Source: an uncultured Clostridium sp.
GTDB taxonomy: Bacteria; Bacillota; Clostridia; TANB77; CAG-508
NCBI GenBank assembly: GCA_947061115.1
Contig: CAMSMU010000001.1
Span: forward strand, 3,361-67,360
DNA length: 64,000 nucleotides
Direction: 5' to 3'
Positions 29,976 through 31,139 of this stretch are shown piece by piece. Under the pieces are notes generated by a model. That model worked only from the letters and a program-made list of their open reading frames with translations, was not told the DNA's origin and ran no database searches. Numbering within the stretch: position 1 is the stretch's first letter; every line of letters starts with the position of its first letter. Made by a program: the position numbers and the translations under genes.

Positions 29976-30671
29976 TTACTTGTTTGACATTATGTAATAA
30001 GCAATCGTTTTAATAAATTCTGAGGATGTAGGATTTCCTTTATCAGGTGATATTGTACTTCCAAAAATTTCATTTACAATATCCATTCGATTTATATTCC
30101 ATGCAGTTATTATTGCACATCTTATTAGCCGTTCAACTGCTGCAGGAGTTGTATTATATTTTTTTGCTATAGCTGGATACAACTCTTTTGTAGGTGATAA
30201 CATTTCTTTTTTACACCTAATTATAGCTTCTATTAAGTACTTATATCCATTAAGATATACTGGTATCCCCAACATATGCAGATATCCTATTACTTCACGC
30301 TCCTCTATTTTTTCTTCATCTGTAATCTGCATATCCAGATTTACACGTTCGGCAATCAATGCAATGAATTCTTCATTTTTTGGAGTTACATAATTTTCGG
30401 ATACCATATATCCAAATATATTTTCCAACTTTCCTGTCCAATCCATCACATCTCTTAGCTGCTTACGCATTGTGCTTTGTATGTCTGCAACTCCATGTTT
30501 CTTTGCTATTTTTTTATAGATGTCAATTGCTGACTTTGATTCTTTATTTAAGTACATTATAATTGCTTCTTTAAAATACTCATATGACTTATTTTTATGT
30601 GGTATACCTATCATCTGAAGGTACTTTTCTATTAATACTTCTGTTGTTAATTCTTTTTTCTCATTTGTCAT
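29976..30671 (-). CDS. tandem Spo0A C-terminal (DNA-binding) domain protein with no receiver domain
   Basis: Two repeats match the Spo0A_C signature: IGIPHKNKSYEYFKEAI..IYKKIAKKHG and LGIPVYLNGYKYLIEAI..LYPAIAKKYNTTPAAVERLIRCAIITAW..NPTSSEFIKTIAYYI. Confidence 0.6.
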   Translation of the reverse strand: MTNEKKELTTEVLIEKYLQMIGIPHKNKSYEYFKEAIIMYLNKESKSAIDIYKKIAKKHGVADIQSTMRKQLRDVMDWTGKLENIFGYMVSENYVTPKNEEFIALIAERVNLDMQITDEEKIEEREVIGYLHMLGIPVYLNGYKYLIEAIIRCKKEMLSPTKELYPAIAKKYNTTPAAVERLIRCAIITAWNINRMDIVNEIFGSTISPDKGNPTSSEFIKTIAYYIMSNK

Positions 30672-30705
30672 TGCTTTCCTCCATTAAATAGTATTATATA
30701 AATAC

Positions 30706-31139
30706 TTATGCATCTGTTTTTATGCGATCAGCAATCATTGCAATAAATTCAGAATTCGATGGTTTTTGGATTTTATCAGATATTGTATTTCCAAATATAG
30801 AATTCACAACATCTTTTCTGTTTTTTCTCCATCCACTTTCTATTGATGTTTTAATTGCAGAATTTATAGACTTACATTTACGTGATTTTCCTCTGCAATT
30901 TTTGGATAAACTTCATTTTTTAATGATGTTTTGCCGTCCATGTATAGTATTATTGCCTGCTTAAGATATTTATATCCATTAACACTTGCAGGTATACTTA
31001 ACATCCTTAGATATTTTGTTATCTCTAACTCAATATCTTTTTTACAATTGCTACCATTTTCTCTTCCTCCTGTTATCTCATTTGATGCTTTGGCGTTTTG
31101 CCGTTTTAAGGTACATGTTGTTTTTTGTTCATTTGTCAT
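30706..31139 (-). pseudogene. Spo0A C-terminal-domain-like protein with a -1 frameshift near 30862
   Basis: ORF 30864..31139 reads ..LSIPASVNGYKYLKQAIILYMDGKTSLKNEVYPKIAEENHVNVS then stops. The next frame continues IKSAIKTSIESGWRKNRKDVVNSIFGNTISDKIQKPSNSEFIAMIADRIKTDA to the stop at 30706. One base appears to be missing. Confidence 0.5.

Follow-up and report, generated by a model that had tools for sequence, protein, structure and literature searches.

We identified, in a 64,000-nucleotide (nt) stretch of DNA from an uncultured Clostridium sp. (assembly GCA_947061115.1, contig CAMSMU010000001.1, positions 3,361 to 67,360 of the forward strand; hereafter the window, numbered from its first letter), a gene for a 231-amino-acid (aa) protein that consists of two fused Spo0A_C domains, the DNA-binding effector domain of Spo0A, and carries no receiver domain. 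The gene is a member of a sparsely spread, chromosomal class of gut Clostridia genes that encode 2-4 Spo0A_C repeats. From its sequence and a structural model, we consider it an even prospect that the protein acts as a phosphorylation-independent DNA-binding regulator, derived from the Spo0A effector domain and bearing two helix-turn-helix (HTH) units in a single chain. Receiver-less Spo0A proteins were already known from phages; what is new here is the tandem fusion, which is chromosomal and partly degenerate.

Two Spo0A effector domains in one receiver-less chain

The Pfam family PF08769 (Spo0A_C) matched the 231-aa protein with 148 bits (E 9e-44; cutoff 25) in two stretches. Scans against Pfam and NCBIfam detected no Response_reg (REC, PF00072) receiver domain in this protein or in the 91-aa open reading frame (ORF) of an adjacent paralog. 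Both results agree with a preliminary description of the locus, made from the DNA letters, which had recognized two Spo0A_C repeats and the absence of a phosphoacceptor domain and had called for the Pfam search. A hidden Markov model (HMM) that we trained on the C-termini of 111 genuine Spo0A proteins revealed that the two domains fill the chain entirely. It scored the N-terminal domain (N-domain) at 55-58 bits, the C-terminal domain (C-domain) at 110 bits and the intact form of the paralog at 98 bits. On the Spo0A equivalog model TIGR02875, the 231-aa protein and the 91-aa fragment reached 149.1 and 36.1 bits, respectively, both below the cutoff of 200. The 231-aa protein is outside the Spo0A equivalog family, given the lack of a receiver, the sub-cutoff score and a different gene position.

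In a sequence search of the PDB, the C-domain matched the Spo0A-C entries 1FC3 and 1LQ1 with E values of about 1e-21. Its identity is 38-39% to the solved Spo0A-C structures by structural alignment and ~50% to the clostridial Spo0A effector domain. The AlphaFold2 (AF2) model of the 231-aa protein comprises two six-helix domains joined by a linker of ~4 residues (predicted local distance difference test score, pLDDT, 82; predicted template modelling score, pTM, 0.74), and a fold search with this model returned 1FC3 and 1LQ1 as the only significant PDB matches (template modelling score, TM, 0.86-0.89; root-mean-square deviation 1.3-2.1 Å). Such matches lie well outside what chance would give. 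The protein therefore resembles Spo0A in having the six-helix Spo0A_C fold, twice over, and in the E-R-x-x-R and KPTxSEFI motifs of its C-domain, but differs from it in the missing receiver and phosphoacceptor, in the two effector domains per chain and in a gene position that is not beside spoIVB.

The nearest relative of the N-domain is the adjacent paralog (56.8 bits), and the 231-aa protein and the paralog begin with a common MTNE(Q/K)K start. The shared start and the close kinship of the two sequences suggest that the N-domain arose by local duplication of a paralog-like gene, followed by fusion.

Residues were numbered as in Bacillus subtilis Spo0A by alignment to 1LQ1. We take E213, R214 and R217 to be the base-contacting residues of Spo0A in the 1LQ1 complex, an assignment that fits this alignment; the residue-level contacts of Spo0A with the bases of the 0A box in that complex are said to have been described by Zhao et al. 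in 2002. The sigma-A-activating region presumably comprises G227, S231, S233, F236 and V240, which were found at the places expected from the numbering, and work on spo0A9V reportedly showed that changes at Gly227 abolish sigma-A-dependent activation, not repression. The recognition helix of the C-domain (VERLIRCAI) keeps all three base-contacting residues (E-R-x-x-R), and the KPTxSEFI signature is kept as well. The N-domain is without the E/R/R triad in every alignment register tried and has a shorter recognition helix; its fold and its C-terminal EFIA helix are kept. In the recognition helix of the paralog (INSAIK), N-S-x-x-K replaces E-R-x-x-R. In 219 genuine Spo0A effector domains, 56 positions reach a conservation of 90% or more; of these, 35 are retained by the C-domain, 29 by the paralog and 21 by the N-domain. 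At position 227 the C-domain has Asn, where genuine Spo0A has Gly in 100% of cases. The published base-specific contacts of Spo0A are with G2, C4 and G5 of TGTCGAA (PMC3485338).

The loss of the triad from the N-domain, which retains its fold and EFIA helix, and its loss from the paralog would also fit a protein-binding adaptor that does not bind DNA and instead uses the Spo0A surfaces to sequester sigma factors or other partners. We regard this as highly improbable: the recognition helix of the C-domain is canonical, the sigma-A-activating helix is altered at Gly227 and no partner gene is conserved nearby.

If the 231-aa protein is instead a two-HTH DNA-binding regulator, the following sequence of events may be envisaged. 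A single transcript unit would run from a consensus promoter through the paralog and the 231-aa gene to a terminator. The C-domain would dock on a 0A-box-like half-site of the TGTCGAA type, and the fused N-domain would provide a second contact, either with a different DNA half-site or with a protein surface, standing in for the receiver-mediated dimerisation that Spo0A undergoes after phosphorylation. With a covalent N-domain in place of phosphorylation-driven dimerisation, activity would follow the level of expression, with no phosphorelay involved. The replacement of Gly227 in the sigma-A-activating helix would make repression or occlusion of promoters more likely than activation in the manner of Spo0A.

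Two kinds of known protein offer partial parallels. MarA, Rob and SoxS, of the AraC/XylS family, are monomeric and carry two HTH units in one polypeptide. By functional analogy only, the two HTH units of the 231-aa chain could contact adjacent DNA without dimerising, although the folds are unrelated. The B. subtilis variant sad67 is a receiver-deletion form of Spo0A whose DNA binding is independent of phosphorylation. Likewise, one report states that the isolated Spo0A DNA-binding domain binds legitimate targets unphosphorylated (PMC3485338), and receiver removal is to that extent a precedent for phosphorylation-free DNA binding and constitutive activity. These laboratory constructs, from work on B. 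subtilis and C. difficile, have a canonical single domain, whereas the 231-aa protein is a natural, diverged two-domain fusion.

Several points weigh against a Spo0A-derived two-HTH regulator. The C-domain is changed at 21 of the 56 conserved positions (Gly227 and 20 others), including His218 to Cys and Glu221 to Ile in the recognition helix, and because of these two changes its specificity may not be 0A-like. There is no 0A box (TGTCGAA) near the locus. The window holds two matches to TGTCGAA, equal to the chance expectation, and 10 to TGNCGAA against ~5 expected, one of them inside the 231-aa coding sequence and none in promoters. No target gene neighbourhood is conserved across the tandem loci described below, whose contexts differ. 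The identity of the base contacts and the effect of Gly227 changes are carried over from B. subtilis Spo0A, and the interdomain geometry comes from an AF2 model built on a 6-sequence alignment only. Eight contigs from different Sequence Read Archive (SRA) runs are identical over the 231-aa gene (696 nt) and over the next 1258 nt downstream, but these contigs were fetched by exact identity to the 231-aa protein, so the lack of variation in the gene is partly by construction and is no evidence on selection. The search bias of the tandem set, given below with its counts, belongs with these points.

The preliminary description suggested that such proteins could compete at 0A boxes or be regulated by protein partners; for the 231-aa protein this is possible and has partial backing in the sequence. 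Autoregulation, or control of the adjacent surface-protein operon, through 0A boxes was considered and finds no support in the TGTCGAA/TGNCGAA scan. One TGTCGAA lies at 47766-47772, in the divergent intergenic region between recG and an aspartate-semialdehyde dehydrogenase gene.

A chromosomal class of multi-repeat Spo0A_C proteins

A word-indexed search of 5.8 billion proteins found only the 231-aa protein itself as a full-length match; the other matches were genuine Spo0A proteins aligned to the C-domain at ~50% identity. The 231-aa protein was not found among 185,579 GTDB species representatives, and the 144-aa intact paralog has only three distant relatives. We then used the N-domain as an HMMER query against 1.84 billion cluster representatives, which gave 489 hits. 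Among the 148 new proteins in the best 150 of these, 25 contain 2-4 Spo0A_C domains (22 of them without REC), 77 are single-domain and receiver-less, and 46 combine REC with one Spo0A_C domain. Examples of the multi-repeat class have two repeats (P0129, P0133, P0153 and P0173), three (P0125) or four (P0127 and P0135). These proteins are 26-35% identical to the window protein, and most of their clusters are singletons. The label 'orphan' in the preliminary description thus holds for the exact architecture, which matches itself only, but not for the wider architecture of 2-4 repeats.

All six multi-repeat loci that were looked up (6/6) are chromosomal, surrounded by housekeeping genes and free of phage genes; spoVT is nearby in two and bofA in one. 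The 231-aa protein shares with this class the presence of at least two domains per chain, the usual lack of a receiver, short linkers, a place on gut Clostridia chromosomes and the frequent loss of the triad, especially in the first repeat. It differs in its neighbouring genes, which vary from locus to locus.

The RecG protein of the window is 57-82% identical to those of metagenome-assembled genomes (MAGs) of uncultured gut Clostridia of the CAG:354 / Ca. Scatovivens type. The four-repeat protein P0127 comes from one MAG, CAZSMG01 (26% GC), which is also the source of a RecG relative (L045). In CAZSMG01 (contig L257), adjacent genes at 10001-11365 and 11534-12922 encode proteins of 454 and 462 aa with four Spo0A_C repeats each; eight effector domains thus lie side by side there, with bofA ~5 kb off. 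A further 315-aa protein with two Spo0A_C repeats, P0187, is encoded at 2007-2954 of a 26% GC contig (L259) from SRR36199840. The same run also holds a contig with the window's 231-aa gene, and P0187 possibly represents another tandem Spo0A_C protein from the window organism. In higher-GC Firmicutes, spoVT closely follows the genes for both P0173 (L167, 10001-11638) and P0133 (L258, 8001-10094); in L167, the gene for a small sigma70_r4-only protein separates P0173 from spoVT.

The base-contacting residues set the tandem proteins apart. Counted per class, the E/R/R triad is kept in 98% of REC-containing Spo0A proteins (n=219), 97% of viral single-domain proteins and 92% of other single receiver-less proteins. 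In the tandem proteins it is kept in 15% of first, 33% of middle and 38% of last repeats, a set that was found with the degenerate N-domain as query and is biased to divergent repeats. The base-contact residues are largely diversified in the class, a pattern that suggests reuse of Spo0A_C as a general module for binding DNA. Judged by these residues, the phage copies look built to read 0A boxes, and the tandem proteins on chromosomes have the look of a DNA-binding family in the course of diversifying. The kinship between the N-domain and its adjacent paralog hints, in addition, at independent local duplication and fusion as the origin of the tandem architecture.

Our literature searches on tandem or multi-repeat Spo0A_C proteins found nothing beyond reports of single-domain proteins in phages and mobile elements. 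The spo0A homologues of gut phages consist of the effector domain only, and a role in manipulating sporulation has been put forward for them (Schwartz et al. 2023, mBio, PMC10294663), and PF08769 is enriched in mobile elements of gut Firmicutes (Jiang et al. 2019, PMC6907783). Both window proteins matched the 111-aa phage family phrog_24603 (E 5.6e-18 for the 231-aa protein and 8.6e-12 for the paralog) and also phrog_37855. We found receiver-less Spo0A_C proteins in 14 human-faecal phage records and five in BFVD. A narrow-alignment search of IMG/VR returned 315 Spo0A_C stretches; the best 80 of these loci yielded 68 ORFs with a single domain and no receiver (median 128 aa) and 12 with REC, but no tandem protein and no adjacent pair. 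A direct search of IMG/VR for relatives of the 231-aa protein found none, and neither window domain shows a specific leaning towards viral over cellular sequences.

P0154, a hit with REC and Spo0A_C chosen for its low-GC-like composition as a possible genuine Spo0A of the same lineage, proved to be encoded, together with another Spo0A_C protein, on a mobile element flanked by an integrase. Such an element in contig L261 (also in L262 and L263) encodes Spo0A_C proteins of 242 and 252 aa (5086-5814 and 8331-9089), one of them with a degenerate receiver-like N-terminus, together with two tyrosine recombinases, HTH_17, SSB and PcfJ.

The window proteins are like these phage and mobile-element proteins in being receiver-less and in belonging to the gut Firmicutes gene pool, and the intact 144-aa paralog has their size and single-domain layout (~100-160 aa). 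However, the 231-aa protein fuses two domains, one of them degenerate, the window paralog has lost the triad that 97% of the phage proteins keep, and the window locus is chromosomal, without the hallmarks of mobile elements.

The Spo0A_C domain has been treated as the hallmark that separates Spo0A from all other response regulators (PMC6136694), and genome and MAG surveys use the presence of 'spo0A' to mark the potential to sporulate (PMC11536998). Proteins with one to four Spo0A_C domains and nothing else exist on chromosomes and can be mistaken for this marker. The fold is not limited to one master regulator: copies of it have undergone duplication, fusion and diversification. Should the 231-aa protein prove to bind 0A boxes, the sporulation decision of an uncultured gut bacterium would have a host-encoded input that needs no phosphorylation, with relevance to how gut Firmicutes persist and are transmitted. 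Binding to other sites would instead define a new transcription-factor family.

A probable operon and its single-domain paralog

The coordinates of the features discussed here are listed in Table 1. The 231-aa gene starts 34 nt beyond the stop codon of the paralog and has a GGAGG ribosome-binding site 6 nt upstream of its ATG. From the promoter to the terminator, the paralog and the 231-aa gene appear, by their sequence signals, to form a two-gene operon. The preliminary description had placed a frameshifted paralog after the 231-aa gene; the frameshift is real, and 'after' is right only in plus-strand coordinates, as the paralog is transcriptionally upstream.

Table 1. Positions in the window of the Spo0A_C genes, their domains and signals, and spoIVB
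Feature	Position	Strand	Basis or remark
231-aa protein gene, two fused Spo0A_C domains	29976..30671	-	ORF, Pfam, own HMM, PDB, AF2
N-terminal degenerate Spo0A_C domain, residues 3-115	30327..30665	-	own HMM, AF2, residue conservation
C-terminal well-preserved Spo0A_C domain, residues 119-227	29991..30317	-	own HMM, structural alignment, residue conservation
Single-domain receiver-less Spo0A_C paralog	30706..31139	-	intact allele 144 aa; pseudogene in window
Sigma-70-type promoter TTGACA-17-TATAAT, 12/12 consensus	31174..31202	-	scan; 35 nt upstream of paralog start codon
32-bp perfect palindrome AAAATTAGTAATCAAT/ATTGATTACTAATTTT	31220..31251	.	100% complementary; between Nudix stop and -35 hexamer
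Strong intrinsic terminator, 13-bp stem, 6-nt loop, T-run	29898..29929	-	47 nt past 231-aa gene stop
spoIVB, 345 aa	52278-53315	-	Peptidase_S55 262 bits + PDZ

The palindrome upstream of the promoter is probably an AT-rich terminator of the Nudix gene, and it could also serve as an operator. Because it is a perfect 32-bp palindrome, all Logan contigs (k=31) with the locus end there.

In the window, the paralog is reduced to the 91-aa ORF (30864..31139, minus strand; 34.6 bits to PF08769), and the rest of the domain lies in another frame at 30709-30912. Compared with the intact allele, a single G is missing between 30874 and 30873. The intact 144-aa allele is present in four other metagenomic contigs, and the identical G deletion occurs in a contig (L003) from an independent SRA run, so the frameshift in the window is not a sequencing error. 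The SRA runs that carry the locus include SRR35841371, SRR32747397, SRR26686540 and SRR36199849. Two other runs have a GAG-to-TAG nonsense change together with a Val-to-Ile change, and one run has a Leu-to-Phe change. An A/T variant site among the contigs lies a few bases downstream of the -10 hexamer. In total, when the window is compared with contigs L001-L006 and L173, the ~580 nt of paralog and promoter (30706-31202) contain five variant sites: the frameshift, the nonsense change, two missense changes and the site near the -10 hexamer. If only the downstream stretch, on which the retrieval placed no constraint, serves as the comparison, the chance that all five would fall in the paralog region is (580/1838)^5, or ~0.003.

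The clustering of the variants and the independent alleles indicate that the paralog is real and was repeatedly inactivated in a nearly clonal population, and that no assembly error is involved. The cluster suggests either a mutational hotspot or selection for loss of the paralog, and we propose that natural populations either can do without the paralog or select for its loss. Inactivation in otherwise identical strains makes this a small, clear case of one or the other. We rejected a programmed frameshift or phase variation, as the missing G is outside any homopolymer or slippery sequence.

A frameshift in one haplotype and a nonsense change in another could also mark the decay of a functionless remnant of a phage or mobile-element cassette, in which the 231-aa gene is to follow the paralog. 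The abundance of receiver-less Spo0A_C stretches in viral contigs, their presence in phage records, BFVD and an integrase-flanked element, and the enrichment of PF08769 in gut mobile elements are all in line with such an origin. We nevertheless think decay unlikely. The 231-aa ORF is intact in 11 of the 11 contigs read (by construction, since these were retrieved by exact identity), and its gene has good expression signals. There are no phage or integrase genes, tRNA gene or GC anomaly around the locus, the best 80 viral loci contain neither a tandem protein nor an adjacent pair, and neither domain is specifically nearer to viral sequences.

G+C makes up 25.9% of the window, and almost every gene is encoded by the minus strand. 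Composition is flat, with no G+C shift at the locus, and the ORFs scanned around it include no integrase or phage genes. A tRNA scan found no tRNA genes in the window, and at the gathering threshold no Rfam structured RNAs were found there. We therefore rejected a prophage or island origin as the primary explanation, given the flat composition and the absence of mobile-element genes among the scanned neighbours; an ancient acquisition of the locus from a mobile element is possible.

Sporulation genes and chromosomal neighbours

The window contains spoIVB and sleB, indicating that the organism has sporulation genes. The downstream neighbour of spoIVB is a convergent class-II aminoacyl-tRNA synthetase gene and not spo0A, as the preliminary description had noted in reporting no spo0A next to spoIVB. 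The Spo0A_C genes are ~21 kb away from spoIVB, and a six-frame phmmer search found no further Spo0A_C domains in the 64-kb window. A contig of another organism (L255) has the canonical order dxs-tlyA-nadK-argR-recN-spoIVB-spo0A-spoIIM. In the window (50869-55271), spoIVB is split from the canonical recN-spoIVB-spo0A-spoIIM block; at 345 aa its product is short against that of the 428-aa gene in L255, and upstream of it is a 620-aa ORF (53409-55271) without a Pfam match.

Among 80 related genomes, none has Spo0A_C within 10 kb of recG. In the recG-flank loci of the relatives, which stop short of the tandem Spo0A_C locus, spoIVB is not near recG either, and these loci are therefore uninformative on spo0A. 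Metagenome loci around homologues of the flavoprotein (at most 57% identical) have a genuine Spo0A nearby in one case only and were no more informative.

In this low-GC gut lineage, the Spo0A effector domain may have escaped two-component control and grown into a receiver-less family of one to four repeats with varied DNA-contact residues. With the canonical spo0A missing from its place beside spoIVB, one or more members, possibly the 231-aa protein with its canonical C-domain, might run or override the sporulation decision without a phosphorelay, in a network that governs sporulation or has outlived its loss. We find this distinctly unlikely. The stricter version, in which the receiver-containing spo0A has been lost from beside spoIVB and the receiver-less Spo0A_C proteins start sporulation in its stead, is very unlikely. 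It would account for the tRNA synthetase gene after spoIVB and for the absence of further Spo0A_C domains in the 64 kb and around recG in the 80 related genomes, and multi-repeat Spo0A_C genes do occur in a related MAG. However, only 64 kb were seen, and spo0A may sit elsewhere, with the whole recN-spoIVB-spo0A block rearranged; the recG loci of relatives say nothing on spo0A, and the 231-aa protein is below the Spo0A equivalog cutoff. Moreover, constitutive Spo0A-C activity, as in the sad67 variant of B. subtilis, is deleterious to growth.

Alternatively, the 231-aa protein may be an antagonist of host Spo0A, whose C-domain occupies 0A boxes without activating and so raises the threshold for sporulation, as proposed for the truncated Spo0A of phages (PMC10294663). 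This is rather unlikely, although a number of observations accord with it: the E/R/R triad is kept in the C-domain, its sigma-A-activating helix has lost the invariant Gly227, target binding by the isolated Spo0A DNA-binding domain needs no phosphorylation (PMC3485338), and spoIVB and sleB are present in the organism. Yet a perfect consensus promoter would impose a permanent block on sporulation unless itself repressed. The 21 changes among the 56 conserved positions of the C-domain, and the diversified base contacts of the tandem class, point to new specificities and not to competition, and the presence of a genuine Spo0A was judged only within the 64-kb window.

The immediate neighbours of the locus are genes for a Nudix protein, a flavoprotein, RNase R and SleB, and a cohesin/sortase/dockerin surface cluster. 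This cluster lies directly downstream of the Spo0A_C operon (24453-29758, minus strand). It encodes a cohesin-like protein with an LPKTG sorting signal (28718-29758), a sortase (28004-28636), a 749-aa protein with SH3_3, two Big_2 domains and a type-I dockerin (25744-27993) and a cadherin-like protein of 428 aa (24453-25739), and resembles a cohesin-dockerin anchoring system in miniature, here in a gut bacterium of 26% GC.

Long ORFs without a Pfam match are found at 44014-45276 (420 aa), 20554-21765 (403 aa) and 49087-50682 (531 aa), the first two also without an NCBIfam match. An ABC-F ribosomal-protection protein of the Lsa family is encoded at 12535-14019 on the minus strand (700 bits, just below the family cutoff of 750), and its gene adjoins a PhoB/PhoR-like two-component pair (14063-15923).

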